Shown piece after piece: positions 7,285 to 25,392 of a stretch of DNA of 64,000 nt (the first letter of the stretch is position 1; the number at the start of each line of letters is the position of its first letter). Source of the DNA: Candidatus Saccharimonadales bacterium (GTDB lineage: Bacteria; Patescibacteriota; Saccharimonadia; Saccharimonadales; UBA4665). The stretch lies in assembly GCA_035479375.1 (NCBI GenBank), contig DATIIT010000009.1, forward strand, positions 5,073 to 69,072, read 5' to 3'. A model generated the notes under the pieces. That model saw only the letters and a list, made by a program, of their open reading frames with translations, did no database searches and was not told the origin of the DNA. The position numbers were made by a program, and so were the translations under genes.

Positions 7285-8049
7285 ATGATGAGCAGGGTCA
7301 AAACCGAATCCGAAATCGCCGCCTTGCGCGAGAGTGGCCACATGCTGGCCACGGTGTTGGAGCTGATGCGGCGCGAGGCCAAATCCGGCGTGTCCCCCAA
7401 AGACATGGCCATGCTGGCCAAAAAAGAGCTGGACCGCCTGGGTGGCGAGCCAACGTTTTTGGGTGTGCCCGGCTCGTTCACGCCATTCCCGGATATTATT
7501 TGCATCTCGGTGAACGACCAAGTGCAGCACAGCATCCCGGACGTGCGGCCGTTTGAGCCGGGTGACGTGGTTAACTTTGATTTTGGTGTGACATACCACG
7601 GCATGGTGACGGACGCCGGCATCACCGTGTGCATCGACGGCCAAACGACGCCGGACACGGCGCGCCTTTTAAAGGGCACAGAAAAAGCGCTGGCTGACGG
7701 CCTTGCGGTGGTGCGCGCCGGCTGCCACGTGGGCGATATTTCTGCCGCCATTGAACGTACCTTGCGCAAGTACCGCCTGGGAATTGTGCGCGAATTGGTA
7801 GGCCACGGCGTTGGCCATCACCTCCACGAAGACCCGGAAATCCCCAACTACGGCCGCGCCGGCACTGGCCCGGTGTTAAAAGCCGGCATGACCATTGCAG
7901 TAGAGCCAATCACCACTCTGGGCAGCCCTATGATCTATGAAGAGAAAGATGGCTGGACGCTGCGCACCCAAGACGGCAGTTATGCGGCGCAATTTGAACA
8001 CACCGTGCTGATCACCGCCACCGGCTGTGAGATCCTGACGCGCCTCTAG
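7285..8049 (+). CDS. map: Methionine aminopeptidase type I
   Basis: CISVND, DAGIT, GHGVG..LHEDP, AVEP, AQFEHT metal-ligand motifs. Confidence 0.96.
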   Translation: MMSRVKTESEIAALRESGHMLATVLELMRREAKSGVSPKDMAMLAKKELDRLGGEPTFLGVPGSFTPFPDIICISVNDQVQHSIPDVRPFEPGDVVNFDFGVTYHGMVTDAGITVCIDGQTTPDTARLLKGTEKALADGLAVVRAGCHVGDISAAIERTLRKYRLGIVRELVGHGVGHHLHEDPEIPNYGRAGTGPVLKAGMTIAVEPITTLGSPMIYEEKDGWTLRTQDGSYAAQFEHTVLITATGCEILTRL

Positions 8050-8101
8050 CCGTCTTCCGGGGCTTGCCCAAATCCAAACGCAAGCGGTATACTGCGTGCA
8101 T

Positions 8102-9334
8102 ATGCATGGCTCTTCGGCTCCAACGCCATACGTTGGCCTCGACATCGGCACCAGCACAGTCCGCTGTGTTATTGGGGTGGTTGACGCCGCCAACCCGTCG
8201 AAGTTGTCTATTGTTGGCCATGGTAGTGCGCCCAACCTTGGCATGCGCAAAGGTGTAGTGGTGCATGTGGACGACACGGCGGACGCTATTGCTAAAGCCA
8301 TAACTGAGGCAGAGCGTATTTCTGGCATCCGCGTTACGGGCGGGACGGTGAACATCAACGGCACGCATGTCAGCGGGCTGAACTCCAAGGGCGTTATTGC
8401 TATATCAGCGGCCAACCGTGAAATAACCCCGGAAGACCGGATGCGCGTCGAAGAGGCGGCAACTATTGTGCAGCTGCCCAGCAACCGCGAAATCATCCAG
8501 GTATTTGCCCAGAATTACCGCCTGGACGGCCAGGAAAATATCAAAGACCCGGTAGGTATGCACGGTGTGCGTTTGGAGGTGGACACGCATATTGTGACCG
8601 CGGCCACGCCTAACTTGCGTAATTTGGACATGGCCATGGACAAAGCCCAGGTATCGGCACACAACCACACCCTGTCTGGGTTGGCGGCGGCCGAAGCTGT
8701 GCTGCAGCGCCAGCAAAAAGAGGCTGGCACAGTGCTTTTGGACATTGGCGCCGGTACCACAAACCTGGTTGTTTTAGAGGATGGCGAAGTGCAGCACACG
8801 GCCGTGTTGCCCATGGGCGGCCAACACATCACCAACGACCTGGCCATTGGTTTGCGCACTGAGCTGGACATTGCCGAGGCAGTCAAAATCCAGCACGCCG
8901 GTTTGCTGCAGGCCAATAAGCGCGACATCCGCGTGAAGATGCATGGCAAGGAGCACATTTTTAAGGCTGAGGACATTGCTATGATCACCGAAGCCCGCGT
9001 GGAAGAATTATTTGAGTTCGTTGACAAAGAATTGGCCCGGGTACACAAGGCGCACAAATTGCCCGGCGGCGTAGTGCTGGTGGGCGGCACGGCTAAGTTG
9101 CCGGGAATTGCCGATTTTGCCAAGCAGCAATTGCAGCTCGCCGCCCGTGTAGGTAAATTGCAGCCGCTGAGCGGCTTGGTAGAAACGGTCGCCGACCCGC
9201 TGTACTCAACGGCCGTCGGGCTCATGCTCCTGGACATGCTGCTTTTGCCAGAGGAAGCGGCTGCGCATGGCAGTGGTATGGGCGGCCGAACACAACATTT
9301 TGTAGATAGTTTGTTGCGCCGGTTTAAGCGTTAA
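8102..9334 (+). CDS. ftsA: Cell division protein FtsA
   Basis: VGLDIGTSTV, LDIGAGTT, GGQHITNDLA, LVGGTAKL; directly upstream of ftsZ. Confidence 0.96.
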   Translation: MHGSSAPTPYVGLDIGTSTVRCVIGVVDAANPSKLSIVGHGSAPNLGMRKGVVVHVDDTADAIAKAITEAERISGIRVTGGTVNINGTHVSGLNSKGVIAISAANREITPEDRMRVEEAATIVQLPSNREIIQVFAQNYRLDGQENIKDPVGMHGVRLEVDTHIVTAATPNLRNLDMAMDKAQVSAHNHTLSGLAAAEAVLQRQQKEAGTVLLDIGAGTTNLVVLEDGEVQHTAVLPMGGQHITNDLAIGLRTELDIAEAVKIQHAGLLQANKRDIRVKMHGKEHIFKAEDIAMITEARVEELFEFVDKELARVHKAHKLPGGVVLVGGTAKLPGIADFAKQQLQLAARVGKLQPLSGLVETVADPLYSTAVGLMLLDMLLLPEEAAAHGSGMGGRTQHFVDSLLRRFKR

Positions 9335-9453
9335 AGCGCCGCGTACAGAAAGTGTCCACGGCCAAAATTCGCCAAAAATAAGCGGATACATTTATTGGAC
9401 GCGTCCAGCAGCGTGCGGTATACTGCAACTATAACGGTAAGAGAGGGTACGGA

Positions 9454-10806
9454 ATGCCTCAGGTTGCACCAGCTATAGAAACATTTGCGCGTATTAAGGT
9501 TGTAGGCGTCGGCGGAGCCGGCGGCGCGGCGGTGAACCGCATGATTGCAGCCGGCGTAGATGGCGTGGAGTTTATTGTGGTAAACACCGACGCGCAGGCG
9601 CTGCACCATTCCAATGCCCAGAAAAAAATCCACATCGGCAAGGAAGAGACCCGCGGTTTGGGCGCTGGCGCCGACCCGTCGGTGGGCGAAAAGGCCGCAC
9701 TCGAATCGATAGACGAAATTAAGCAAGCCCTGGAAGGCGCCGACATGGTCTTTGTTACCATTGGCGCCGGCGGCGGCACCGGTTCTGGTGCCGGGCACGT
9801 CGTGGCCCGCGCCGCAAAAGAAATGGGCATTTTGGTGGTGGGCTTTGCCACCAAACCGTTCGCGTTTGAGGGCGAAAAGCGCCGCAAGAACGCCGAGCTA
9901 GCCATCAATAACTTGCGCAGCAGCGTGGATACGCTCATCGTTATCCCTAACGACCGCCTGTTGCAGACAATCGACCGCCAAACGCCGCTCATGGAGGCCT
10001 TTAAAGTGGCCGACGACGTTTTGCGCCAAGGCGTACAGGGCATTTCCGACCTTATTACCGTGCACGGGCTGATTAACCTCGACTTTGCCGACGTGAAGGC
10101 CGTGATGAGCAACGCCGGCTCGGCGCTCATGGGCATTGGCCGTGCCAGTGGCGAAAACCGCGCCGTGATGGCCGCCCAACAAGCCATCGAGTCGCCGCTG
10201 CTGGAAGTTTCCATCGACGGCGCCCGCGGCATCATCCTGAATATTATTGGTGGCAACGATTTGTCGATGCACGAAATCAACACCGCCGCCGAGACGATCA
10301 CTGCCGCAGCCGACCCCGACGCCAACATTATCTTTGGCGCGGCGATCAGCCCAGAAATTGACGGCGAGGTCATTATTACGGTGGTGGCAACCGGTTTTGA
10401 CGCCTCGTATTTCTCACAGCAGCAGGCCGGCACCCCCACGTTGGGCGGCGCCCCGGCCGCGGTGCCAATCTCTGACCCAGACGAGCCCCAGCTGCCGCCG
10501 CTGCAGAAAACACGGGCAGACGAAGAGCTTTCTAAGATTGACATGGACCTGGACAAAGACGAGGATGAGGCCGCGGCCGACTTTAAGTCCGACCACATGC
10601 CCAACATTTGGACACTAGACGACCACGCCGCTGGCAGCGACGACGAAGATGACCTCCCCAAGCCTCCGGCTCCCATGGAAGACAGCCACGCCGCACCAAA
10701 GCCGGCGGCCAGTGACGCCGAGCTGGAAAAGCCGTCATTTTTGCGGCGCTTGGCCAAGCGCGTCAACAAAGAGCACGACGACATTGACCCCAGTAAGTCC
10801 GCGTAA
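9454..10806 (+). CDS. ftsZ: Cell division protein FtsZ
   Basis: GGGTGSG tubulin signature, NLDFADV, acidic linker and C-terminal core peptide LEKPSFLRR. Confidence 0.98.
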
Positions 10807-10834
10807 ATAAATACAACGCATTTTGCTTGCACGA

Positions 10835-10883
10835 GCGCTATACATAGAGCTACTATAATAGTCACAAGCGCTATATGTAGCGA
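10835..10883 (+). promoter_or_regulatory. Tandem NrdR boxes flanking a TATAAT -10 element
   Basis: gcgCTATACATAGagc (10835-10850) and gcgCTATATGTAGcga (10868-10883) match the CwAtATaTwG core; starts are 33 bp apart; TATAAT at 10854-10859; directly upstream of nrdR-nrdJ. Confidence 0.8.
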
Positions 10884-10918
10884 GCACGTTGAAAGCAGTA
10901 AGAGAGGGAAGGAATGGC

Positions 10919-11392
10919 ATGAAGTGTAGCCAATGCGGATGCGCCGACACGAAAGTGATCGAATCGCGCGATGCCGGCGACGGCCAAGCCATCCGGCGGC
11001 GCCGGGCGTGCCCGGACTGCGGATATCGTTTTACCACTTACGAGCGGTTGGAACGGCCGCAGCTCATCGTCATTAAGCATGACGGCACGCGCCAGCTGTT
11101 TAACCGCGAAAAGCTTCTTGGCGGGCTATACCACGCCTGCGAGAAGACGCCAGTCACCAATTTGCAGCTTGAGGCATTGGTGGCGGACATCGAGCAAACG
11201 CTGTACGCATGCGGCGAGCCCGAAGTCCAATCGTCCAAAATTGGCGAGCTGGTGATGGAACGGTTGAGCCAGCTGAACGAGGTCGCCTATGTCCGGTTTG
11301 CGAGCGTTTACCGCCGCTTTACCGACATTGCCGGATTTGAGCGCGAGCTGACGCACATCAAAAAAGCAAAGCACGAGCCTCTCCAAGTGTAG
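10919..11392 (+). CDS. nrdR: Transcriptional repressor NrdR
   Basis: MKCSQC...IESR...IRRRRAC..CGYRFTTYE zinc ribbon, ATP-cone, VAYVRFASVY. Confidence 0.96.
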   Translation: MKCSQCGCADTKVIESRDAGDGQAIRRRRACPDCGYRFTTYERLERPQLIVIKHDGTRQLFNREKLLGGLYHACEKTPVTNLQLEALVADIEQTLYACGEPEVQSSKIGELVMERLSQLNEVAYVRFASVYRRFTDIAGFERELTHIKKAKHEPLQV

Positions 11393-11542
11393 CCGGTTCC
11401 TCCGGACAGGTTTTATGGCCTGCCGGGAGGAGCTGGACAACGCTTGAGAGACGCGGCTGTCAACTCTAACAAATACATCAAAAACAATAACCTAACGCCG
11501 GCGGAAGCTTGGGAGCAGCCGCGGGCAAAAAGTGAGGGTACC

Positions 11543-14395
11543 ATGGGACAAACCACCAGTCTAACCGTTGGGCGGCTGTTTACGCAGCCCAAAACAAAGG
11601 CATACGACCAACTAACGTGGGTCAAAACGGATTCTTTAATTAAGAACCCCGCCTCGGGCAAACCGGTCTTTGAGCAAAATGACGTTGAATTCCCGGAGGG
11701 TTGGACGCTCAACTCTATCAACATCGTGGCGCAGAAGTACTTTACCGGAACGCCGGGCACAGACGAGCGCGAAGCGTCGCTGAAGACGCTGATTGACCGC
11801 GTGGTGGACACTGTGGTGCGCCAAGGCCAGCAAGAGGGCTACTTTGAAAGCGACGCCGAAGCCGAAGATTTCCGCGAGGAGTTGAAGTATGTGTTGGCGA
11901 CGCAGCGGGCAGCATTTAACTCGCCGGTGTGGTTTAACATTGGTGCGCCGGCCCGGGCGCAGCAGGCCAGCGCTTGCTTTATTTTGGGCGTCGAAGACAC
12001 CATGGAGTCGATCCTGAACTGGTACAAAGAAGAAGGCATGATCTTTAAGGGCGGTTCTGGCGCCGGGCTCAATCTGAGCCCCATCCGCTCCTCGGTGGAG
12101 CCGCTGGGCAAGAGTGCGGGCACGGCTTCTGGCCCCCTAAGCTTTATGCGTGGTGCCGACTCGTCCGCGGGCGCTATTAAGAGCGGCGGCAAGACCCGCC
12201 GCGCGGCCAAAATGGTCATCCTGAACGCTGACCACCCGGACGTTGTGGATTTCACTTGGGCGAAAGCCATTGAAGAGCGCAAGGCGCGCGTGCTGCAGCA
12301 GGCCGGCTTTGACATGCGCCTGGACGGCAAAGACATCTTTTCGGTGCAGTATCAGAACGCCAACAACTCGGTGCGCGTCACCGATGACTTCATGCAGGCT
12401 GTCCTGGACGATGCCAGCTGGGACCTCAAGGCGGTCACTACCGGCAAGCCGGTGAAGACCATGAAAGCGCGTGACCTGTTCCGCCAGATCGCTGAAGCGG
12501 CCTGGGAATGCGCTGACCCGGGCATGCAGTTCGACACTACCATCAACAGGTGGCACACCGCGCCCAAGGCTGGCCGCATCAACGGCAGCAACCCGTGCTC
12601 GGAATACATGCACCTAGACAACTCGGCCTGTAACCTGGCCAGCATCAACCTGCTCAAGTACTTGAAGGACGACAACACCTACGACATTGAGGCCTTCAAG
12701 CACACCGTAGAGCTGGTATTTACCGCCCAGGAAATCCTGGTAGGCTACAGCTCCTACCCAACGGAGCGCATCACCAAGAACGCTAAGGCGTACCGCGAGC
12801 TCGGTTTGGGCTACGCCAACCTTGGCGCGCTGCTGATGGCCATGGGCCTGCCGTACGACAGCGACGAAGGCCGCGCCATTGCTGCCGCCATCACCGCGCT
12901 CATGACCGGCCACGCCTACGCCACGAGCGCCAAAATGGCCAAGCGCGTCGGCCCGTTTGCTGGCTACCGCCAAGACCGCGAAGCCATGCTAAAGGTCTTG
13001 CGCATGCACCGCAGCGAAGTCTCCAAAATTGACGCCAGCCTGGTACAAGAAGAGCTGCTGAGCGCCGCAGCCGCCGCCTGGGACGAAGCTGTGGAACTGG
13101 GCGAATTGTACGGCGTGCGCAACTCGCAGGCCAGCGTGCTGGCGCCTACGGGTACCATCGGCTTTATGATGGGCTGCGACACCACCGGCATCGAGCCAGA
13201 CTTCTCGCTAGTGAAGTACAAGGATCTGGTTGGCGGCGGCAACATGGTCATCGTTAACCAGACCGTGCCGCGCGCCCTGAAATTCCTGGGCTACAGCCCG
13301 GCGCAAATTGAAGGAATTGTGGAGCACATCCGCGAGAACGGCAACGTCGTGGACGCACCCCACCTCAAAGACGCGCACAAGCCGGTATTTGCCTGTGCCG
13401 TTGGCTCGGACGCCATCCACTACCTTGGCCACGTCAAGATGATGGGCGCGGTGCAGCCGTTTATATCTGGTGCTATTTCCAAGACCGTGAACATGCCAGA
13501 GGACGTCACTGTGGAAGATGTAGAGCAGCTGCACATCGACTCGTGGAAGCTCGGCCTGAAGGCCGTGGCCATTTACCGCGACAACTGCAAGGTTGCCCAG
13601 CCGTTGTCCACCACCAAGAAAGACGACAAAAAAGAGGAGCCGGCCGCCCAGGCAGCCGCTGCCACCCCGGCAGCCGCTGCCGAGTCGGTCAACGACCGCA
13701 TTGTGGTCAAGGGCGCCATCCGCCGCGTGCTGCCGCGCCGCCGCACGGCCCGCACCTACAAATTCCGCATCGCCGACCTCAAGGGTTTCTTCACGGTAGG
13801 CGAGTACGAAGACGGCACGCCCGGCGAAGTATTTGTGAGCGTCTCCAAGCAGGGCTCGACGCTGCGCGGATTAATGGACGCTTTCAGCATCTCGTTCAGC
13901 CATGGCCTGCAATACGGCGTACCGCTGAAGAGCTTTGTAAAGGCCATGATGAGCACCAGCTACGCACCGAGCGGCATCACCGACGACCCGGAGATCCGCA
14001 CCGCCAGCTCTATCACGGACTACATTGCCCGCCGCCTCGCCCTGGACTACATGAGCTTTGACGACCGTTTGGAGCTTGGCCTGGCATCTATTGACGACAT
14101 GCCAGAGGAGCAGACCAGCTTGCTGACGGACGACCAGTCGGTTGACGGGCTCATTCTGGAAGCGGAAAAGGTAGCCGAGCCGGCGCTTGCCAAGGCCGCA
14201 CCGGTAGCCAGCGTGTCTGATCCTGCACCAAGTTCTAACCTCTCGCAGAAAGCCAGCCCAGCGGCCGCCACAGACCTGCCAAAGGTCGGCATCGACACTG
14301 CCGCGCCGTTGTGCTTCAGCTGCGGCAACCAAACCCAGCGGGCAGGCAGCTGCTACGTCTGCACCAGCTGCGGCAGCACCTCGGGCTGCAGCTAG
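11543..14395 (+). CDS. nrdJ: Class II (adenosylcobalamin-dependent) ribonucleotide reductase
   Basis: FNSPVWFN, SACFI, NPCSEY, SACNLAS, APTGTIG, C-terminal TSCPD-like region and zinc ribbon; GAGGG RBS before ATG 11543. Confidence 0.95.
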   Translation: MGQTTSLTVGRLFTQPKTKAYDQLTWVKTDSLIKNPASGKPVFEQNDVEFPEGWTLNSINIVAQKYFTGTPGTDEREASLKTLIDRVVDTVVRQGQQEGYFESDAEAEDFREELKYVLATQRAAFNSPVWFNIGAPARAQQASACFILGVEDTMESILNWYKEEGMIFKGGSGAGLNLSPIRSSVEPLGKSAGTASGPLSFMRGADSSAGAIKSGGKTRRAAKMVILNADHPDVVDFTWAKAIEERKARVLQQAGFDMRLDGKDIFSVQYQNANNSVRVTDDFMQAVLDDASWDLKAVTTGKPVKTMKARDLFRQIAEAAWECADPGMQFDTTINRWHTAPKAGRINGSNPCSEYMHLDNSACNLASINLLKYLKDDNTYDIEAFKHTVELVFTAQEILVGYSSYPTERITKNAKAYRELGLGYANLGALLMAMGLPYDSDEGRAIAAAITALMTGHAYATSAKMAKRVGPFAGYRQDREAMLKVLRMHRSEVSKIDASLVQEELLSAAAAAWDEAVELGELYGVRNSQASVLAPTGTIGFMMGCDTTGIEPDFSLVKYKDLVGGGNMVIVNQTVPRALKFLGYSPAQIEGIVEHIRENGNVVDAPHLKDAHKPVFACAVGSDAIHYLGHVKMMGAVQPFISGAISKTVNMPEDVTVEDVEQLHIDSWKLGLKAVAIYRDNCKVAQPLSTTKKDDKKEEPAAQAAAATPAAAAESVNDRIVVKGAIRRVLPRRRTARTYKFRIADLKGFFTVGEYEDGTPGEVFVSVSKQGSTLRGLMDAFSISFSHGLQYGVPLKSFVKAMMSTSYAPSGITDDPEIRTASSITDYIARRLALDYMSFDDRLELGLASIDDMPEEQTSLLTDDQSVDGLILEAEKVAEPALAKAAPVASVSDPAPSSNLSQKASPAAATDLPKVGIDTAAPLCFSCGNQTQRAGSCYVCTSCGSTSGCS

Positions 14396-14397
14396 CG

Positions 14398-14560
14398 TTT
14401 GGGCCCCAGTGGGCGGCTTTACCGGCTTTTCCGTCGGGAAGGCCGCTCACGCGCGGTGGCGGCGTCCGCTGAGCATGTAGTCTCATCGGCCGCCTTCCGG
14501 CTGCGCTTACGGGAGCCTTCCCGCCGGAAAAGCGCGGCGCGCCGCCCGCCCAGCCCCAAA
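14398..14560. other. Long GC-rich nested inverted repeat (rod-like hairpin; candidate ncRNA or repeat element)
   Basis: 14425-14443 pairs with 14515-14533 (one mismatch); GGGCGGC 14411-17 with GCCGCCC 14541-47; GCGCGG with CTGCGC; GGCGGC with GCCGCC; TGAG with CTCA. Confidence 0.55.
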
Positions 14561-14583
14561 ACTAGCCGGAAACGGCTAGTTTT
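14558..14583. terminator. Intrinsic terminator, possibly bidirectional
   Basis: AAAACTAGCCG-GAAA-CGGCTAGTTTT: perfect 11-bp stem with GNRA loop and A/T tails. Confidence 0.8.
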
Positions 14584-14635
14584 GCTATTCGTCAGTTAAT
14601 TGCTAGTTAATCTGGGCCTGTGCTATGCTCGAAGG

Positions 14636-14914
14636 GTGAAACTGCTTGTCCTTTACAGACCGGATTCAGAGCATTCATCTGATGTGGAGTCCTTTGCCCG
14701 CGATTTTCAAGGGCGCTATGAAGCCGGGCGCAAACTGGAGTTGGTCAGCCTCAATACCCGCGATGGCGCCGCCACAGCCAGCCTGTACGATGTCATGTCC
14801 TATCCAGCTATTTTAGTGCTTAACACCGACGGCTCAGTGCTAAACATGTGGCAGGGCATGCCCATGCCCCTCATGGACGAAGTCGCCGGCTACACCTACA
14901 ACGCCTCCAGCTAG
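14636..14914 (+). CDS. Small conserved hypothetical protein, possible thioredoxin-like fold without CxxC
   Basis: GTG start after GAAGG; KLLVLYRP...ASLYDVMSYPAILVL..DGSVL..W.G resembles a Trx-type beta-alpha pattern (inference). Confidence 0.55.
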   Translation: MKLLVLYRPDSEHSSDVESFARDFQGRYEAGRKLELVSLNTRDGAATASLYDVMSYPAILVLNTDGSVLNMWQGMPMPLMDEVAGYTYNASS

Positions 14915-14965
14915 GTTTTTTAGGTGGCAAGGTGTAAAATAGGCTTGTTATGCGTGCCGCCCTAG

Positions 14966-15165
14966 GCGGCGAAGTGGCCATCACCCACAAGCAGCGGGAA
15001 GAAATCCTTACCGAGAGTAGAACCCGCCGGAACCGCCCGGAGCACCAGGACAAGCGGCAAGCAAGCGCTAAAAGAGCCATTTCTTTTGGAAACCGGATGG
15101 TACCGCCCGCAAAAGGGTTCCGGCACAAGGCAAAAGTAATGGCTTTTTCTTTTAGGAAAGGGGCA
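14966..15165 (+). ncRNA. T-box riboswitch (ileS, ultrashort stem I type)
   Basis: Stem I GTGG-CCATCAC-CCAC with Ile specifier ATC (14980-82); stem II S-turn motifs GGAAGAA...AGTAGAACC; T-box CCGGA-TGGTACC-GCCC-gcaaaa-GGGT-TCCGG (15093-15123); directly upstream of ileS. Confidence 0.88.
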
Positions 15166-15170
15166 GTGGT

Positions 15171-18044
15171 ATGAAATTCAAAAAAGGCACGCGCCGCAAG
15201 GCCATCGAGTATGAGAAGGACCTGGTGCGCTACTGGAAAGAGCACCACACCTTTGAAAAATCGGTGGAGCAGCGGCCAAAGGACAACGCCTACGTGTTTT
15301 ACGACGGGCCGCCATTTATCACCGGCGTGCCGCACCATGGCACGCTGCTGAGTTCCATCAGCAAAGACCTGGTGACGCGCTATTGGACCATGCAAGGCAA
15401 GCGCGTGGAACGGGGCTGGGGCTGGGACTGCCATGGCCTGCCGGCCGAGGTGTTCACCGAGAAAAAGCTGGGCATCAAAGACAGGCGCGACATCGGCACC
15501 AAAGTGAGCCTGGAAGCGTACATCACCACCTGCCGCGAGAATATGGTGCAAACCGGCTCGCTCTGGGAAGACACCATTGACCGGATTGGCCGCTGGGTGG
15601 ACTTCCGCGGCGCCTACAGCACCATGGACAAAAATTACATGGAGAGCGTCTGGTGGGCCTTCAAGCAGCTCTACGAAAAGGGCAAAATTTACGAGGGCGA
15701 AAAGGTGCTGCTGTACTGCGTGCGCGACGCCACGCCCATCTCCAAGGCCGAAGTGGCCATGGACAACTCCTACCAAGACATCACCGACCCGTCGGTGTAC
15801 GTCAAGTTTAAGCTGAAGGGCGAGGACAGCTTTGTTCTGGCCTGGACAACCACGCCTTGGACGCTCCCGGCCAACGTGGCTGTGGCCGTTAACCAAGATT
15901 TTACCTACGCCGAGGTTGAAGTGGACGGCCAAAAACTCATCTTGGCCAAAGACTTGCTGGAAAAAGTGCTAACCAACGAAAAACACCAGGTGCTGCCCTA
16001 CAAAGTGCTGCGCACGCTCAAGGGCAAGGAATTGGTGGGCAAAGAGGTGGAGCCGCTGTTTGAGCACCGCGGCCCAAAGGCGCACGTCATTTACCACGAA
16101 GAGTACGTCAGCCTGGACGAAGGCACGGGCATTGTGCACTCCGCGCCAGCCTACGGCGAAGAAGACTTCATCATGGCCAAAAAAGAGGGCATCCCGGTAG
16201 TGTCGGTCATTGACGAAAACGGCTTTTACACCTCTGGCGAGTGGAAAGGGCAGTATGTGTGGGACGCGGACAAGCCCATTGCCAAAGAGCTCCACGCCCG
16301 CGGCGTAGTCTGGAAAATTGAGTACGTCCGCCACAGCTACCCGCACTGCCACCGCTGCCACACCAAGCTGATGTATCGCGCCCACCCCAGCTGGTTCATG
16401 GACATCGCCGGCCAGCGGGAGCAAATGCTGGAGCAAAACGGCAACGTCAACTGGTTCCCGGAACACATCAAGCAGGGGCGCTTTGCCAAAACCGTGGAAA
16501 GCGCGCCGGACTGGAACCTGAGCCGCGACCGTTTCTGGGCAACGGCCATGCCGGTGTGGAAAGGCACGGACGCGCACGGCAAGGAGCACGTCAAGGTGGT
16601 GGGCAGCTACGCCGAACTCAAAGAGCTCTCCGGCGTAGAGCTGCACGACTACCACCGGCCGTGGATCGACGACGTCACCTTCACGCTGGACGGCGTGGAG
16701 TACAAGCGCATCGACAAGGTCCTGGACTGCTGGTTCGAAAGCGGCTCCATGCCGTTCGCCCAGTTTCATTACCCCTTTGAAAACGTCCAAAAGTTTGAGG
16801 AAAATTTCCCGGGCGACTTCATTGTGGAGTACGTGGGGCAGGTGCGCGCCTGGTTTTACTACGTGCATGCCGTGGGCGTGGGGCTGTTTGGCAAAAACTC
16901 GTTTAAGAACGTGGCCGTAACGGGGACGCTGGCCGGCAACGACGGGCGCAAAATGAGCAAGTCTTTGGGCAATTACACCGACCCTAACGTGCTGATGGAC
17001 GAATACTCGGCCGACGCCCTGCGCTTTTTGCTGATGTCCTCGCCGCTGTTAAATGGCGAAGATTTTGCCCTCGCGGACAAAGACGTGGCCGACGTCAACC
17101 GCAAGCTCAGCATGGTCTGGAACATGTACGATTTCTTTACGCTGTACGCCGACGTGGACGGCTGGGAGTGGAAGGGCAGCTACGACGATCCATCTGCGGG
17201 GCTAGAAAACCCGCTGGACACCTGGATTGTCTCACGTGTCCACCAACTTGGGCAGGAAGTCGCCGGCCACATGGCGCGCTATGACATCCCCAACGCCACC
17301 AAGCCAATTTTGCCGTTTATTGAAGACGCCAGCAACTGGTATGTGCGCCGCTCGCGCCGCCGTTTTTGGAAGAGTGACGACGATACCGACAAGCAAAACG
17401 CCTACCGCACGCTGCACTACGTGCTGGTGCAGCTGGCGCACGTCATGGCGCCGTTCACGCCGTTTTTGGCCGAGGAATTGTTCCAGAAATTGACCGGCGA
17501 AGAGAGCGTGCACTTGCGCTTGTGGCCGGCGCCTGGCGCGGTGGATGAGCTGGTGGTGGGCCGTATGGATGTGGCGCGCGTGACAATCAACGAAGGGCTC
17601 GCCCAGCGGGCATTATCTCGCCTGAAGGTCAGGCAGCCGCTGGCGGCAGTGCACTATGGTGCTGAGGCGCAGCTTCCAGAAGAGTACGAGGCCATTATCG
17701 CCGAGGAGCTCAACGTGAAGCAGGTGGTTTACGCCGCACAAAAGGCGGGCGTTACCCTTGATACCAAGCTCACGCCAGAGCTGAAGCGCGAGGGCATGAT
17801 GCGCGAGGTGGTGCGCAACGTCCAGAGCGCCCGCAAAGCCGCCGGCCTGGACGTGGACGACCGCATCCACCTGAGCCTGTCCACCACGGACGATGAGCTG
17901 CGCCGGGCAATTACCGGGCACGAAGCCGTGATTGCCGCCGAGACGCTGGCGGTAAAAATTGTACTCGACCAAACCTTTGCGTTTGAAAGCGCCTGCGCAG
18001 TGGATAACGCGCCGCTGACCGTCTCGCTGGAAAAGGCCAACTAG
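15171..18044 (+). CDS. ileS: Isoleucyl-tRNA synthetase (type 2, no C-terminal zinc finger)
   Basis: FYDGPPFITGVPHHGT (HIGH), GWDCHGLP, WTTTPWTLP, RDRFW, KMSKS; C-terminal ELKREG..REVVR.VQ..RK..GL.V.DRI. Confidence 0.96.
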   Translation: MKFKKGTRRKAIEYEKDLVRYWKEHHTFEKSVEQRPKDNAYVFYDGPPFITGVPHHGTLLSSISKDLVTRYWTMQGKRVERGWGWDCHGLPAEVFTEKKLGIKDRRDIGTKVSLEAYITTCRENMVQTGSLWEDTIDRIGRWVDFRGAYSTMDKNYMESVWWAFKQLYEKGKIYEGEKVLLYCVRDATPISKAEVAMDNSYQDITDPSVYVKFKLKGEDSFVLAWTTTPWTLPANVAVAVNQDFTYAEVEVDGQKLILAKDLLEKVLTNEKHQVLPYKVLRTLKGKELVGKEVEPLFEHRGPKAHVIYHEEYVSLDEGTGIVHSAPAYGEEDFIMAKKEGIPVVSVIDENGFYTSGEWKGQYVWDADKPIAKELHARGVVWKIEYVRHSYPHCHRCHTKLMYRAHPSWFMDIAGQREQMLEQNGNVNWFPEHIKQGRFAKTVESAPDWNLSRDRFWATAMPVWKGTDAHGKEHVKVVGSYAELKELSGVELHDYHRPWIDDVTFTLDGVEYKRIDKVLDCWFESGSMPFAQFHYPFENVQKFEENFPGDFIVEYVGQVRAWFYYVHAVGVGLFGKNSFKNVAVTGTLAGNDGRKMSKSLGNYTDPNVLMDEYSADALRFLLMSSPLLNGEDFALADKDVADVNRKLSMVWNMYDFFTLYADVDGWEWKGSYDDPSAGLENPLDTWIVSRVHQLGQEVAGHMARYDIPNATKPILPFIEDASNWYVRRSRRRFWKSDDDTDKQNAYRTLHYVLVQLAHVMAPFTPFLAEELFQKLTGEESVHLRLWPAPGAVDELVVGRMDVARVTINEGLAQRALSRLKVRQPLAAVHYGAEAQLPEEYEAIIAEELNVKQVVYAAQKAGVTLDTKLTPELKREGMMREVVRNVQSARKAAGLDVDDRIHLSLSTTDDELRRAITGHEAVIAAETLAVKIVLDQTFAFESACAVDNAPLTVSLEKAN

Positions 18045-18130
18045 CCGGCCCGCGGGCACTTTACAGATGAGCCCAGATCTGATACTATCTCATGGTAGTT
18101 AAATTTTCCCGTAAGGAAAGAGTAAAACGT

Positions 18131-18439
18131 ATGAAAAAAGCAGTTATCGCAACCGGCGGCAAGCAGTACCTCGTAACCGAGGGCGAGACATTGCAGGTTG
18201 AGCTGTTGCACCTCGATGGCAAGACCGCCACTTTTGAGCCGCTGTTGGTGGTTGACGGCGACGCCGTTTCTGTTGGCGCGCCAATCGTCGACAAAGCCAA
18301 GGTGACGGCCGAAATCGTCGAAGCCGACGTCCAGGCCGACAAAGTCACCGCCATCCGCTACAAAGCCAAGAAGCGGGTACACAAAGTGCATGGCCACCGC
18401 CAGCACCAAACCACGATCAAAATCAGCAAGATTGCCTAA
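18131..18439 (+). CDS. rplU: 50S ribosomal protein L21
   Basis: AVIATGGKQYLV...YKAKKR..K..GHRQ; AAGGAAAG upstream. Confidence 0.95.
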   Translation: MKKAVIATGGKQYLVTEGETLQVELLHLDGKTATFEPLLVVDGDAVSVGAPIVDKAKVTAEIVEADVQADKVTAIRYKAKKRVHKVHGHRQHQTTIKISKIA

Positions 18440-18454
18440 AGTTTCGGCTGGGCC

Positions 18455-18463
18455 TGTGGATAA
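18455..18463 (-). promoter_or_regulatory. Consensus DnaA box (TTATCCACA on minus strand)
   Basis: TGTGGATAA exact match; near-matches at 18517-25 (TTTTCCACG), 31898-906 (TTGTCCACA) and 40328-36 (TTTTCCACA). Confidence 0.5.
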
Positions 18464-18495
18464 AACAGCAGCGAGCATCGTCGCTGCTGTTTTTT
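18462..18495 (+). terminator. rplU intrinsic terminator
   Basis: AAAACAGCAGCGA-gcatcg-TCGCTGCTGTTTT followed by more Ts. Confidence 0.85.
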
Positions 18496-18753
18496 ATACA
18501 TCACGAAATGTACGATTTTTCCACGCGGAAACGGGTAAGCACGAACATTTACGGTGATATTTATAACTCGTTGTTACCATAACAACGCTTGACCATGGAC
18601 TGTGACGCCCAAAGGTGATGGAATAATACTCTGTATTTTCCCCGTTTTAGGGCTTGTCGAGCCGTATCTGTTAACCGGATAATGGTATGGTACTCCAAAG
18701 TCTACCCTGTAGACCGGAAACAAAAATAACCCAAAAAACCAACACAAACACCC

Positions 18754-21700
18754 ATGCGACACACCGCGCTCAAACTGAAGCTAGTTGCCAGCAAGCCATT
18801 GCTGGCCCTGTGTTTGCTGACGCCGGTGCTGCTGTTTGGCGTGGCGACCCAGTACCTGGCTGGCGGCCGGGCGTCTGCGGCCACAGCTGGCACGATCAAC
18901 TTCCAGGCGCGCCTCATGACCAACACCGGCGCCATTGCCGCGGACGGCGACTACAACGTGGAGTTCAAGCTGTACGACACCTTTAGCACCGGCGGCACCG
19001 CCCAGGGTGTCTGTACTGGAAACTGTAAGTGGGTCGAGACGCGTACTAGCGGCAACAAGATCCATGTGGCCAATGGCTACATCAGCGCCAATTTGGGCAG
19101 CGTCACCAGCTTCCCCACGACGATTAACTGGGACCAGGACATCTGGCTGACCATGAACATCGGTGGCACGGGCACGCCCAGTTGGGACGGCGAAATGTCG
19201 CCGCGCCTGAAGCTAACCGCCGTGCCATACGCGTTCCGTGCCGGCCAGCTAGCTAGCCTGGCCGGCAGTAACACTGGTGTGCTGCAGTTTGCTGCTAGCT
19301 TAGGGCAGGCCACGACGATCACGTTGCCCGACCCGGGCGCCACCACGGCAACGGTTTGTTACCAGGCCTCCACCAGCTGTGGTTTTGCCACGGGCACCTC
19401 GGGGAGCTACATCCAGAACGCCCTGACCCAGCAGACAGCTAACTTCAACATCATCGGGAACAATACGGCGAACCCCACGGCGCAGATCCAGGGCATTGCC
19501 AGCGGCACGAAGCCGGTTTTGCAGCTGCTGGGCGGCTCCACGCCGGGCAGCGGCGAGGACATTTTGAACCTCCAGGACTCCACGGCCACGAACACATTTT
19601 TTAAGGTCGACAACGCCGGGCTGGCCACGCTGAACAAAGGCCTGACGGTTTCTGGCGGCCAGGTGAGCATCAACGACACCTCCAACTTCAACACCAAGAT
19701 TAACACTGGCACGTCCACGGGAACCGTGCAGATTGGCAACAGCAGCAACGGGGGCACGCTGACTCTGCAAAGCTCCACCACGATCGCCATTGCCACCACA
19801 AACTTTAACGTTTCCACCACGGGCTTAGTAACCTTGGCGGGCGGCCTGACACCGGATGTCACCACCGCCGCCAACGGCAGCGGCTCGGCCAACGCCATTA
19901 CGCTGACGCCGGGCTCGTCCGGCGGCGCTTCCTCTAACGGCGCGGCGCTCAACCTAAACGGCGGCGCGGCCACCGGCACTACCAGTGTTACCGGCGGCGC
20001 GGTCACGATCCAGGCTGGCAGCGCCACTGGCGGCAGCGGCACGCGCAACGGCGGCTCGGTGAATATTGACGCCGGTACGGGCGCCTCGGCGGCGGGTAAT
20101 ATTAACATCGGCCAGAGCAGTGTGGGCTCAACAATTAACCTGGGCAGCACCACCCAGAGCACCGGCACACAGACGCTCAACGTGGGCAACAATAACACCT
20201 CCGGTTCAACAACCAATGTGACGATAGGCGCCGGCCTGGGCGCTACGGCCGGCACCACCACCTTGCAGTCCAAGACAACGTTGCAGCTTACCAGCGGCAC
20301 GACCACGTCGATTAACACCGCGGCGTCCACCACGGCCTCAACAGGCGCTATCACGATTAAATCTGGTGACGCCAGCAGCGGCACCAACCTGAGCGCCGGA
20401 ACGGTCACGCTTGACACCGGTACACACACCGGCGCCGGCACGGGTACGCTCAACCTGGGCAACGCCAACGCCACCAGCATCCAGCTTGGCAACACCGGCA
20501 GCACCACGGCCATAACCGGCACGCTCAATATTAACGACAACGCCAACTTTAACACCAAGATTAACACGGGCACATCTACCGGCACGATCAGCATTGGCAA
20601 CAGCGCTTCGGGCACGCTCGCGCTGCAAGGCGGCGCGGCGACCTCGCTGGTGGTGAACAACGGCGCGGGCAACACTACCACGCTCAACTTTACCGCACCG
20701 AGCGGCACCAACACTATTACGTTCCCGGCGGCGAGCGGCACGGTGCAGCTGGCGCCGGCCACTGGCGGGTATATCCAGCAAGTGCCGGCCACGACGCTTA
20801 TTAACACGATTGCGCCAACAGCGGCCAGTGTGGTGGCGCTCACCATAAAAGGCACCACCGGCACGCAAGCGCACGTCCTGGAAATTTTCAACTCGGCTGG
20901 CACGCCAACGCTGCAAGATTACTTCGATGGCAATGGCTTGCTCAACGTGAGCCAAATTATCCAGCCCACGGCCAATAACACGATTGACCTGGGCACCAGC
21001 AGCGCTGCCTTCCACACCGGTTACTTTGGCACGAGCGTGGTGACGCAGTCGGTTGTGAGCAGCGGCACGAACGCAATCAACCTAGACACCGGCGGCGTGG
21101 CGGCGATTAACATTGGCGTGAACGGCATAAGCGTGAACGGCATTAACATAGGCAACACCACCAGCAACCCCAACGTGGCCTTCAACGGCTCGGGTACGTT
21201 TGGCACCACCACGGGCAACGTGTCCTTGAACGGCGCAACCCAGGTTGCGGCCAACAAGAACTTCTCGCTGGCGGCCGGCACGGGCACGATTGCCCAGACG
21301 TTCTCGTCTGCCGCTGCGGGCAACGCCCAGACGTTTAGCTTTGCCAATACCAACACGGGTGCGGGCGTCGCCATCCAGGGAGTTAACATTACGCCTACCA
21401 ACACCAGCACGGCCACCAGCGGCACGAACCAGCTCAACCTTATTAACTTTGCGGCCGGCGGCGCGCTAGGCGGCACGGACAACACCAACGGCATTAACTT
21501 TGCCTCGGCCACGGGCTACACCAACTTTATTAAGACGCCGACGTTTGTGTTGAACTCGGCCGGGGCGATTAGCGGCGTGAACACATATAATGGCCTGACG
21601 CTGACGAGCGCCGCCGATGGCTTTACGGTGGCCGGCGGCACTACCTCGCGCACGTTAACGGTCACGGGTGCAGACATCACCATTGGCAGCACGATTAAGC

Positions 21701-24700
21701 CCACCAGTGCTGGCGCCTTGACGGTGCAGGCCAACGGCGCTAACTCCTTGAGCTTGACCGCCGGCGCGGCCTCCACCTGGGACATTGGCAACAACTTGCT
21801 GTCGCTGCAGACCACGAACAACGGCGCGGTACAGACCGGCACCGGGCTGTGGACGCAGGGCGGAAACATTACGTTTAACGGCACCACGGCACGCACGATT
21901 ACCGGGCCAAGCACCGGCGGCCTGACGATTACGGTGGACAGCGGGCCGTTGGCGCTGACGACGACCACCTCTGGTGGGTTGTCGCTCAACTCTGTGGGTG
22001 CGCTGAGCCTCACCGGCGCTGCGGCCTCTACCTGGAGCACGGGCTCGGCAGCTTTAACGTTGCAGTCGGGCAACTTTAACGTGGCCAGCGGTGGGCGCGT
22101 GACATTAGCTGGTGGCCAGGCGCCGGACATCAGCACCGCAGTCACCAGCGGTGTGGCCGCAGCGCTCACCCTGCAGCCGGGCACGGCCACCGGCGCCAAC
22201 AACGGTGCTACGGTGACGCTGCAAGGCGGCACGGCCGGCGGCACTGGGGTGAAGGGGCTTATCCAGCTCAACGGCAGTACGTACTTTACCACGGGTAGCT
22301 ACTCCAGTGGTACTACAGCCACGATTACCCAAAGCTTGGTGGACTCCAACTCGGCCATTACTGCCACGGCCACGGCGGCCAGCCTGGTGTTTACGGTGCC
22401 GTCACCTACCATTACCACGGCCGGGCGCGTCTTATATATAACAAACGTTGGCGGCACGAACGCGTTCACCTTGGCCGGTGCCGGCACCAGCTTTACGCTG
22501 AACACTGGCAGCACGGCCACGCTCATGTGGAGTGGCTCGGCCTGGACAAGCGCCGGCGTGGACGCCAGCACGCTGCAGAACGTGTACAACAACTCCACGG
22601 GCAACACCACGCCAGAGATTTTGCTGGACACCACGCGCCGCGGTATCGACATCCAGGACGCCAACACCACCCTGGGTTCTACCGAGGCCTTGTTGGCGGT
22701 GCGGGCCAGCGCCACGGCCAGCACCCTGGGCACTGGTTTGTTCGTGGTCAACGCCAGCGGCAAGGTGGGTATTAACACCGGCAGTACCTCGACCACGCCA
22801 ACGATTAGCTACGATGTGTCGCTTGGCCAGATCGCCGGTGCCACCACGGCGCGCACGATTGGCGTGGAAGCGCAGGGCACCACCAACATCGGCGGCAACG
22901 GCTTGTCGCTTACGGCCGGCACCGGCAACGGCACCGCCGCCGGCGGCCAGCTGACCTTACAGGGCGGCGGTACTGGTACTGGCGCGGCTGCCGTGGGCGG
23001 CGCGGTGCTGATTCAGGGCGGTACCTCCAGCGGTGCTTCAGGCGCCAGCAACGGTGGTACGGTGACACTACAAGGCGGCACGGCCGGCACTGGCGGCACA
23101 AAGGGCCTCATCCAGCTCAACGGCGCGACGTACTTTACCACCGGTAGCTACTCCAGCGGGTCGACCTCTAGCATTACCCAGAGCTTAATTGACTCTAACT
23201 CGGCCATTTTGGCCACGGCGACCGCAACGAGCCTGACGTTTACGGTGCCGTCGCCGACGGTCACTACCGCATCGGGCCGCATCATATATATAAGCAACGT
23301 GGGCACGAACCCGTTTACCCTAGCTGGCGCCGGCACCAGCTTTACCTTGAATGCGGGGAGCACGGCGACCTTGTTGTGGAACGGCTCGGCCTGGACAAGC
23401 GCCGGCGTGGACGCCAGCACCTTGCAAAATGTCTACAACAACTCGGCGGCGTCGCCGACCCCAGAAATTTTGTTGGACAGCACCCGGCACGGGTTGGACA
23501 TCCAGGACGCCAACACCACCTTGGGCTCCACCGAGGCTCTATTAGCCGTGCGGGCAAGTGCCACCGCCACCAGCCTGGGCAACGGTTTGTTCGTGGTCAA
23601 CGCCAGCGGCAAGGTCGGCATTAACCTAAGCAGCACTTCCACCACACCCACGATCAGCAACGACCTATCCTTTGGCGCCGGCGCCAACCGCACGATTGGC
23701 GTGGAAGCGCAGTCCGCCAGTAACACCGCCGGCAACAACATCACCCTGGCGGGCGGCACGGCCAACGGCACCGGCGCCGGCGGCAACACGGTCTTGCAGG
23801 GCGGCGCGGCCTCGGCCACGGCTGGTTCTAACGGCGGCGGCATTACGCTTACGGCAGCGGCCGGCTCGGTAACCGGTACGGGCGGCGCCGGTGGCGCAGT
23901 GACGATCCAGGGCGGCAGCGCCGGCGGCAGCGGTAACAACAACGGCGGCGGCGTTACGGTGGGCTTGGGCGCTGCGACTGGCACCGGTACGCAGGGCACC
24001 TTCCAGGTCCAAAATGCCGTGGGCGCCAGCTTGCTCACGGTTGACCCCAGCAACACGGCGGCCAGCCTCAACCTTATCAGCAATGGTGGCGCCGAGAGCG
24101 GCAGCCCGCCCACCGGCTTTGCCGCGCAGGGCTCGGGCAGCTCGGTAGCGACAGGCACCGGCACGGATGCGGCGAGCGGCTCGCAGTCCGCCAAGGTAAC
24201 ATTTGGCACGACTGCCAACGCCGGTACTAAGATTAGCTTTGCCACAGCGCCTACGGCTAGCACCACAGTGAACTACATCGTGTCCTTCAGCGCCAAGCAG
24301 GTGTCTGGTACAGCGGTGGCGCCGGGAAACACGGCTTTGCAGGTGCTGTACTCGCCAGACAACGGTACCACGCTGACGGCCACCTGCAGCAACTACAGCT
24401 CGTCGGCCTCGCTGTCCACCACGGCCTGGACGAAGGTGAGCTGTACGTTCATCCCGGGTTCCACTACGGTTACCACTGCGCTCCTGATTATCCGCCAAGC
24501 CGACACGCCGGGCGTCAGCCGCGTTATCGACATCGACAACGTCAGTGTGGTGCAGCAGAACAGCTCGGGTGCCACCAACGTGGGCGACTTGAAGGTGGGC
24601 GGCGCGGTGAGCCAAGGCTTGACGCTGTTCACGCTGGACACCTACTCGGCTACGCCGTTTAGCGGCAGCAACGCCTCGCTGGCAGGCTCGATGTACTTTG

Positions 24701-25314: not shown

Positions 25315-25392
25315 CCTGGCCGCCTTGGCAGCTTAGGTGCTACAATATAACCATTAGAGGAACTGCCGAAAGAGGTTGACGAGCCCACAGGC

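Follow-up and report, generated by a model that had tools for sequence, protein, structure and literature searches.

What RNA stands in front of the isoleucyl-tRNA synthetase gene (ileS) of a Candidatus Saccharimonadales bacterium, and by what kind of switch could it control that gene? The locus lies in a window of 64,000 nucleotides (nt), the whole stretch of DNA analysed here (assembly GCA_035479375.1, contig DATIIT010000009.1, positions 5,073 to 69,072), in which a leader separates a small open reading frame (ORF) ending at 14914 from a 957-residue ORF at 15171-18044. Judged by motifs, covariation and tRNA complementarity, the leader is almost certainly a T-box riboswitch for tRNA-Ile(GAU). 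The reading favoured here, with a probability of roughly 60%, is that it attenuates transcription by means of a terminator that would be nested around the antiterminator and would compete with Stem III. Leaders of this kind are a real and widespread T-box that current annotation misses, with a non-canonical, probably transcriptional expression platform.

The hallmarks of a tRNA-Ile T-box lie within positions 14950-15153 of the window, in a leader RNA spanning about 14947-15153 (Table 1). Folding of the single sequence 14960-15180 was uninformative (z=0.33), so comparative analysis was required. BLASTN found the leader in most genomes of the window's genus and in other families of the order, and two alignments were used, one of 27 leaders and one of 64 non-redundant leaders; the latter gave the covariation counts reported below. 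Stems I, II, III, A1 and A2 together are 98.9% paired, with 16 of 26 pairs changed on both sides, a result equalled by none of 500 shuffles, and structures slid by 1-3 columns drop to 34-58% paired. An independent RNAalifold prediction contains Stem I, the base and the upper helix of Stem II, A1 and A2.

Stem I consists of 4 base pairs (bp), all of them changed on both sides among the leaders, and a 7-nt terminal loop that bears the specifier, and it has no distal platform for the tRNA elbow. The AUC specifier is invariant and the A that follows it is at least 90% conserved. In Stem II four base pairs covary and RNAalifold adds a covarying upper helix; its S-turn motifs, GGAAGAA (14997-15003) and AGUAGAAC (15016-23), are conserved in the leaders, where the S-turn GAA and UA.A are invariant columns. 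A1 and A2 are 100% and 99.6% paired, with six pairs changed on both sides, and within the bulge the UGG, the A and the last C do not vary. In 46 of the 64 leaders, including that of the window, A2 has at its base a G-U wobble, published as a steric sensor. The discriminator motif 5'-RRRxG - Stem III - AA-3' has been defined from T-box crystal structures (PMC7583486), and its purines are called RAG in PMC11297988. The window has AAGCG, Stem III and AAA directly before A1, which matches this motif exactly; the motif is conserved and its helix covaries.

The CCGC loop of Stem IIA can pair with a downstream GCGG, which would give a IIA/B-type pseudoknot, and the window carries an extra insert of about 12 nt in this region compared with its relatives. 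By eye, the loop and tail partners change together in relatives (CGC/GCG, GAG/CUC, GACU/AGUC, UCAG/CUGA, AUGAU/AUCAU), and a crude automatic count finds at least 4 bp in 18 of 64 leaders as against about 5 in shuffles. Most relatives have an F-box-like CGUAA after the Stem IIA hairpin. In most leaders, too, an additional 5' hairpin precedes Stem I and a short helix closes around both, which makes the ultrashort Stem I an arm in a three-way junction. RNAfold places this junction in several relatives (for example L007, L009, L017, L018, L021 and L024), the closing helix UGC/GCA becomes UAC/GUA or GAC/GUU by eye, and the arms of the hairpin vary yet stay complementary.

The tRNA side of the pairing is in keeping with this. 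The tRNA-Ile(GAU) of a same-genus genome (G003) and of a same-family genome (G032) ends in GCCC-A-CCA, complementary to the UGGU of the bulge, and its anticodon GAU reads AUC. In the same-genus (complete) and same-family genomes the tRNA-Ile(GAU) gene lies between the 16S rRNA gene and tRNA-Ala, and the assembly that holds the window (G000) contains no 16S rRNA gene, no tRNA-Ile(GAU) gene and no tRNA-Ala(UGC) gene. Its rRNA operon was evidently left unassembled.

The features named in a preliminary description of this DNA were all found where it had placed them. The tiny Stem I with its AUC specifier, the two S-turn elements and the complete T-box bulge (CCGGA-UGGUACC-GCCC/GGGU-UCCGG) are present, with covarying helices in the 64 leaders, and so is the 18-bp outer stem with one mismatch, which covaries as well. 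The central claim of a genuine ileS T-box with an ultrashort Stem I, its AUC presented in the loop, thus stands on motifs, covariation and class-wide conservation. To these elements the present analysis adds Stem III within the 5' strand of the outer stem, the RAG motif (15063-67), the U-tract (15144-53) and the 5' hairpin (14956-70). The covariance-model search that the same description had called for came out otherwise: Rfam gave no match for the window at the gathering cut-off (93 bits for RF00230), none at E<=10 on 14850-15250 and none genome-wide, and no match at the gathering cut-off in 12 named Saccharibacteria loci with the same motif. GP20-b, the only weak Rfam match (E=5.6), is unrelated and was rejected as chance.

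A covariance model built solely from Saccharimonadia leaders (R1) finds the leader in 245 of 301 Saccharimonadia genomes and 137 of 161 genera, and outside this class it has matches in about 127 of the roughly 377 Patescibacteria genomes sampled. When the Rfam T-box model was applied to 20 fetched R1 loci from outside Saccharimonadia, 17 scored (E=0.24 to 8e-12, 23-64 bits), all below the cut-off. Retrieval by R1 and the Rfam scores together provide a transitive link, at the level of sequence models, between these leaders and the known T-box family. About 19% of Saccharimonadia genomes have no R1 match, among them most of those sampled from genus g59. In 12 such genomes (G073, G175, G198, G252, G253 and G257 of g59 and six others) a loose search for the T-box motif likewise found nothing, which rules out the idea that they merely hold large inserts; the absence in these lineages points to secondary loss or strong divergence.

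The discriminator region contains two helices that exclude each other. The outer helix, which surrounds A1/A2 and is the proposed OFF state, has 17 of 18 possible pairs in the window, with one U.U mismatch and one G.U. Among the 64 leaders it is 93% paired and 9 of its 18 pairs are changed on both sides; none of 500 shuffles equalled its paired fraction or covariation score, and one equalled its count of doubly changed pairs. RNAalifold gives it as the consensus, and in all 64 relatives the discriminator region adopts it as the minimum free energy (MFE) fold. The alternative helix of a T-box usually shares the 3' strands of A1/A2; the outer helix does not, and takes Stem III instead. Both arms and the loop of the Stem III hairpin make up its 5' strand, so the two helices cannot coexist. 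A1/A2 are untouched by the exchange and are folded in both states. By energy, Stem III alone is at -6.8 and the outer helix alone at -16.6 kcal/mol, and the OFF fold (outer helix with A1/A2) is at -30.9 versus -19.7 kcal/mol for the ON fold (Stem III with A1/A2), a gap of about 11. TBDB describes the terminator as more stable than the antiterminator, the same relation as that of OFF to ON here.

Stem III is conserved in its own right. It is 97.5% paired in the 64 sequences, and its alignment columns 152/166 read AU in 43, GC in 11 and GU in 8. G15074 forms a G-C pair with C15083 in Stem III (61 of 64) and merely a G.U pair in the outer helix (58 of 64), and its conservation is explained by the Stem III pairing. 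In 28 relatives, including Nanosynbacter and oral taxon 488 (L033-L048 and others), a structured insert of 58-72 nt splits Stem III, and the 5' strand of the terminator (AGAAUCACUUCUUUUG) lies wholly 3' of the insert. Nevertheless, 24 of these 28 retain [A/G]AAAGA[G/A] right after the RAG motif, outside the terminator, and RNAfold pairs it with CUUCUUUUGG. By analogy with known discriminators, Stem III is proposed to be an element of the tRNA-bound (ON) state.

Together with what follows it, the outer helix resembles an intrinsic terminator, that is, a stable hairpin with a G+C-containing base and a U-run immediately after it. In the 64 relatives U accounts for a fraction of 0.79 of the 11 nt at the 3' helix end, versus 0.23 overall. 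A genome-wide survey of T-runs found upstream hairpins slightly enriched, and several textbook hairpin-plus-T-run terminators. The Shine-Dalgarno lies outside the outer stem; predictions leave most of it unpaired with the outer helix in place, and pair it with 15143-50 once that helix is opened. Among 58 leaders it begins a median of 13 nt (range 4-32) past the start of the U-tract, and the spacing is 105-136 nt in L013 and L017. Among 94 relatives with enough downstream sequence, ileS adjoins the leader in 39, and in the other 55 same-strand genes of 0.3-3.8 kb in total extent lie between, so that at these loci ileS could remain under control only if the switch acts on transcription or on RNA stability. 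Transcription attenuation is therefore favoured by the U-tract, the free Shine-Dalgarno in the OFF fold, the logic of Stem III and the operon layouts taken together.

The gap between leader and ileS is also a hotspot for varied accessory genes (loci L031-L148, and L004, L010, L018, L019, L024 and L027). The intervening genes encode inositol-monophosphatase family proteins, GNAT acetyltransferases, a GDSL lipase, T5orf172/GIY-YIG-like proteins, YunG with UDG, DUF4145, cupin and NucS-like proteins. Genes in this position would come under tRNA-Ile control.

The proposed mechanism would run as follows. The anticodon GAU would read AUC in the loop of the 4-bp Stem I, aided by Stem II with its S-turn and by the IIA/B pseudoknot, while Stem III and A1/A2 would fold first. 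If the tRNA is uncharged, its free ACCA-3' end would pair with the UGGU in the bulge between A1 and A2, and tRNA-Ile would lock Stem III and the RAG purines onto the duplex of tRNA end and bulge. The protected Stem III would let the polymerase pass the U-tract (ON), and ileS would be transcribed, in many relatives together with accessory genes. When no uncharged tRNA is bound, the emerging strand 15131-48 (CAAAAG...) would invade Stem III from its base. The 18-bp helix around the still-folded A1/A2, followed by UUUUUCUUUU, would then act as an intrinsic terminator at which the polymerase stops before ileS (OFF), and the RAG string would end up 18 bp away from A1. In this model the off hairpin appears to stop transcription by unfolding Stem III and not the tRNA-binding helix. 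We infer the assignment of the tRNA-binding state from published T-box structures, and termination itself and the kinetics of strand invasion are likewise presumed.

Several observations weigh against transcription attenuation by this route. Transcriptional T-boxes are said to need a long Stem I with a platform for the tRNA elbow (PMC7583486), which this leader lacks, and the Rfam T-box model gives the window no score whatever. The loop of the terminator is the 42-nt structured A1/A2 module, and its stem is A+U-rich with about four G-C pairs, in place of the short loop of 3-8 nt and the GC-rich stem of a typical terminator. A consensus terminator scan does not call the outer helix, although hairpins with an insert as long as 42 nt are beyond the reach of such a scan. 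The scan shows no enrichment of simple terminators in window positions 8000-27000. One relative (L013) has no U-run. The ON fold of the window is predicted to occlude the Shine-Dalgarno. Finally, a nested helix occurs without a Stem III hairpin in other Patescibacteria (L161, L163, L165, L169, L171 and L172) and in one member of the Saccharimonadales (L026), so the Stem III strand swap is not the whole story for nested T-boxes.

This last observation also feeds a different interpretation of the outer helix, as a circularly permuted or extended Stem III that is stacked under A1 in the tRNA-bound state too, without any swap of strands. Docked uncharged tRNA and the RAG purines would then slow or distort the completion of the long hairpin and so lower termination, or else the output would be RNA processing or stability. 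It would account for A1/A2 being folded in both states and for the helix of just 5-6 bp (e.g. CCACAC...GUGUGG with a U-run) that replaces the Stem III hairpin in several other Patescibacteria T-boxes and in L026, and from PMC7583486 the outer helix would be expected to stack coaxially at the site of Stem III. It is a serious rival, but we nevertheless consider it rather unlikely, as the Saccharimonadia hairpin covaries in the exact RRRxG-stem-AA context, and the 5' strand of Stem III is retained where it cannot join the outer helix. The structures in PMC7583486 also imply that, with the outer helix formed, the RAG purines would be 18 bp off A1 and unable to reach the duplex of tRNA and bulge.

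The preliminary description had instead proposed translational control, in which uncharged tRNA would stabilise A1/A2 with the outer stem and free the Shine-Dalgarno, and 15143-50 would otherwise pair with AGGAAAGG (15155-62) and block initiation. The 8-bp pairing that it pointed out is indeed predicted once the outer stem is forced open, the Shine-Dalgarno is close to the helix (median 13 nt past the U-tract start), and the ultrashort-Stem-I ileS T-boxes of Actinobacteria are translational (TBDB; PMC7583486). The fold with the free Shine-Dalgarno, however, is the ground state even without ligand, by a margin of about 6 kcal/mol, and the leader does not have the make-up of a translational ileS T-box, a Shine-Dalgarno sequestered in the OFF helix and no intrinsic terminator. 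The occluding state contains Stem III, which known discriminators need to bind the tRNA 3' end (PMC7583486), so the translational reading would turn ileS off when tRNA-Ile is uncharged, an inverted logic. Judged by eye, the pairing of a purine-rich Shine-Dalgarno to a U-run is generic and its register is not conserved, and ileS would escape control where accessory genes intervene, as in 55 of 94 relatives. Given the folding of the Shine-Dalgarno, its variable spacing and the operon layouts, the translational model was rejected as the main mechanism and is judged very unlikely. A single switch setting both termination and access to the ribosome-binding site on read-through transcripts could draw on the U-tract terminator and the possible Shine-Dalgarno pairing, both of which are in the window. 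Its two effects would be opposed, with the transcription-ON state occluding a Shine-Dalgarno whose pairing is not conserved in relatives, and such dual control seems highly improbable. It is scarcely credible that the leader has decayed to a constitutive form that keeps its structure and has lost its tRNA response: the genome is reduced and about 19% of genomes in the class are without the element, but the specifier, UGGU bulge, G-U wobble and RAG motif are invariant or nearly so, and both alternative helices covary across more than 130 genera.

Table 1. Coordinates of the leader elements and of ileS, numbered along the window
Feature	Position	Strand	Elements	Basis or remark
-10-like promoter hexamer (putative)	14935-14940	+	TAAAAT	Alignment with relatives
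Decoding-domain junction	14951-14993	+	UGC 14951-53 / GCA 14991-93, enclosing P0 and Stem I	RNAfold
5' hairpin P0	14956-14970	+	GCCGCC 14956-61 / GGCGGC 14965-70	RNAfold, relatives
Ultrashort Stem I	14974-14988	+	GUGG 14974-77 / CCAC 14985-88, 7-nt loop CCAUCAC	AUC 14980-82, purine A14983
Stem II	14995-15026	+	Base CGGG 14995-98 / CCCG 15023-26; S-turn AAGAA 14999-15003, AGUAGAA 15016-22	
Stem IIA hairpin	15028-15057	+	CGG 15028-30 / CCG 15037-39; loop CCGC 15033-36 can pair with GCGG 15054-57	
RRRxG / RAG purine string	15063-15067	+	AAGCG	A, A, G and final G invariant or at least 90% conserved
Stem III	15068-15089	+	CUAAAAGAG 15068-76 / UUUCUUUUGG 15081-89, loop CCAU; AA(A) linker 15090-92	
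Outer (terminator) helix around A1/A2, proposed OFF state	15071-15148	+	15071-88 / 15131-48	Covariation, RNAalifold, MFE
A1, T-box bulge and A2	15093-15123	+	A1 CCGGA 15093-97 / UCCGG 15119-23; bulge UGGUACC 15098-104; A2 GCCC 15105-08 / GGGU 15115-18	
U-tract	15144-15153	+	UUUUUCUUUU, directly after the GGC base (15141-43) of the outer helix	U-richness in relatives
Shine-Dalgarno region and ileS start	15154-15173	+	AGGAAAGGGG 15154-63; ATG 15171-73	
ileS, type-2 isoleucyl-tRNA synthetase, 957 residues	15171-18044	+		Pfam tRNA-synt_1, Anticodon_1, DUF5915

The genome that holds the window is 1.19 Mb, about 60% G+C and 96% complete, and the window belongs to its contig C9. The best solved relatives of its isoleucyl-tRNA synthetase (IleRS) are 8c8u (2e-202) and 1ile (1e-194), and the type-1 enzyme 1ffy follows at just 1e-87. 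Of these, 8c8u is presumably the Priestia megaterium type-2 enzyme and 1ile that of Thermus thermophilus. The closest protein homologues of the window IleRS carry the name Candidatus Saccharimonadales, and a scan of 185,579 species genomes with the leader motif gave at least 118 matches; among the matches listed, nearly all are Candidatus Saccharibacteria, Nanosynbacter or Saccharimonas. The earlier guess that the DNA comes from a Saccharibacterium is borne out by both results.

The region upstream of the leader encodes a ribonucleotide reductase of class II (B12-type) that includes a TSCPD domain (11444-14395), followed by two small ORFs of 66 and 104 residues (14399-14914) without a Pfam match. 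In relatives, TATAAT, TAAAAT or TACAGT is aligned at an equal distance upstream of a conserved AUGCGU. The TAAAAT of the window may thus be the -10 element of a promoter, with a transcription start at about 14946-14950; a simple promoter scan did not call this hexamer.

The preliminary description had suggested that the leader was possibly acquired together with ileS from an actinobacterial host, and had asked for a phylogeny of IleRS. A FastTree phylogeny was built from the N-terminal 503 columns of 173 type-2 IleRS sequences, none of them labelled as actinobacterial. In this tree the window sequence falls in a Saccharimonadia clade and its nearest labelled neighbours are other Patescibacteria. 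Successive neighbours of the clade include L170 and L180, from other Patescibacteria classes, as well as metagenomic proteins. The sole named sequence from outside the candidate phyla radiation (CPR), from Borrelia (Borrelia parkeri), is distant. With a leader that is class-wide, the same build in other classes and an IleRS in the Saccharimonadia clade, a recent transfer from an actinobacterial host is not supported by the sequences. An ancient transfer or exchange with Actinobacteria may still have taken place. Patescibacteria have been placed near Chloroflexi. Such a position would fit vertical descent of T-boxes, the origin of which TBDB puts in a common ancestor of Firmicutes, Actinobacteria, Chloroflexi and Deinococcus-Thermus.

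The history of ileS behind these leaders appears to be complex. Three loci of the same order or family (L020, L025 and L026) have a homologous leader and an IleRS that is about 40-47% identical to that of the window and forms a separate clade of the tree, which suggests either that ileS was replaced behind a conserved leader or that there are two old paralogues. A genome from outside Saccharimonadia (G555, with loci L161, L170 and L171) has two type-2 ileS genes under T-box control. One of these encodes an enzyme 59% identical to that of the window and sister to the Saccharimonadia clade, yet its terminator is canonical by eye. A valS-like gene in the same genome is preceded by a further T-box, with the specifier GUC.

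T-boxes serve as the model for the sensing of one RNA by another, and accounts of their switch have consistently set an antiterminator against a terminator or sequestrator. In the literature that was searched, no paper links T-boxes with Saccharibacteria, TM7 or Patescibacteria and none describes a terminator in competition with Stem III, and TBDB applied its translational Ile model to Actinobacteria only. We hold it to be an evenly balanced proposition that Saccharibacteria and Patescibacteria carry an uncatalogued T-box lineage, in which an elbow-less ultrashort Stem I is combined with termination and the switch is re-wired to a latch of Stem III and RAG, with the A1-bulge-A2 module kept in both states. 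If true, this would contradict the rule that transcriptional T-boxes need a Stem I platform, and tRNA would be sensed co-transcriptionally without a platform for its elbow. The Stem III toggle would be a second way of coupling the sensing of aminoacylation to gene expression, and would offer a direct test of the latch role proposed for Stem III and the RAG purines. Annotation at Rfam thresholds misses these elements, and T-box control of aminoacyl-tRNA synthetase genes in Patescibacteria is therefore under-counted. The view of short-Stem-I T-boxes as an actinobacterial speciality needs revision. Cultured Nanosynbacter strains share the element, which makes the proposal testable, and it could serve there as a native regulatory part for genetics.

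The nearest known systems in build are the actinobacterial ileS T-boxes. Sherwood, Grundy and Henkin reportedly described these in 2015, with short or ultrashort Stem I, from Mycobacterium tuberculosis, M. smegmatis and Nocardia farcinica; the actinobacterial features used here are drawn from later papers and general background. Like them, the window leader precedes ileS, presents AUC in the loop at the tip of a very short Stem I and lacks the platform for the tRNA elbow. Further common elements are the S-turn motifs of Stem II, a putative IIA/B pseudoknot, the linker with the RAG purines, Stem III and the A1-UGGNACC-A2 discriminator, which includes the G-U wobble. The expression platform differs. 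In actinobacterial leaders the Shine-Dalgarno is sequestered in a helix that replaces the antisequestrator and A1/A2 are broken, whereas here A1/A2 persist, the alternative helix takes Stem III, a U-tract follows and the Shine-Dalgarno is outside. The extra 5' hairpin with a closing helix around Stem I sets the present leaders apart as well, and we know of no such element in actinobacterial leaders; the host phylum is also different, being Patescibacteria.

Canonical transcriptional T-boxes (RF00230, for example Bacillus subtilis tyrS and glyQS) resemble the window leader in their proposed output, a choice between terminator and read-through made by uncharged tRNA. They have in common a terminator state that is more stable than the tRNA-bound state, the same T-box sequence and the discriminator motifs. 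In the canonical arrangement, however, the 5' strand of the terminator is the 3' half of A1/A2, whereas here it is Stem III, upstream of the T-box sequence, and the antiterminator is therefore nested inside the terminator. The canonical long Stem I with its distal platform, said to be essential (PMC7583486), is absent here, and the canonical RF00230 model has no match in the window.

The T-boxes of other Patescibacteria (L161-L180) agree with the window leader in their ultrashort Stem I, S-turn, IIA/B region and T-box bulge; several of them also share a helix and U-run nested around A1/A2. Their specifiers are AUC (ileS), GUC (valS-like) and AAC (one aspS/asnS-like gene). Genomes of Patescibacteria outside Saccharimonadia often carry 2-4 short-Stem-I T-boxes each, and canonical and nested terminators both occur among them. 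Canonical terminators that overlap A1/A2 are seen in L162 and L173-L176, and by eye in L170, while others are nested without a Stem III hairpin.

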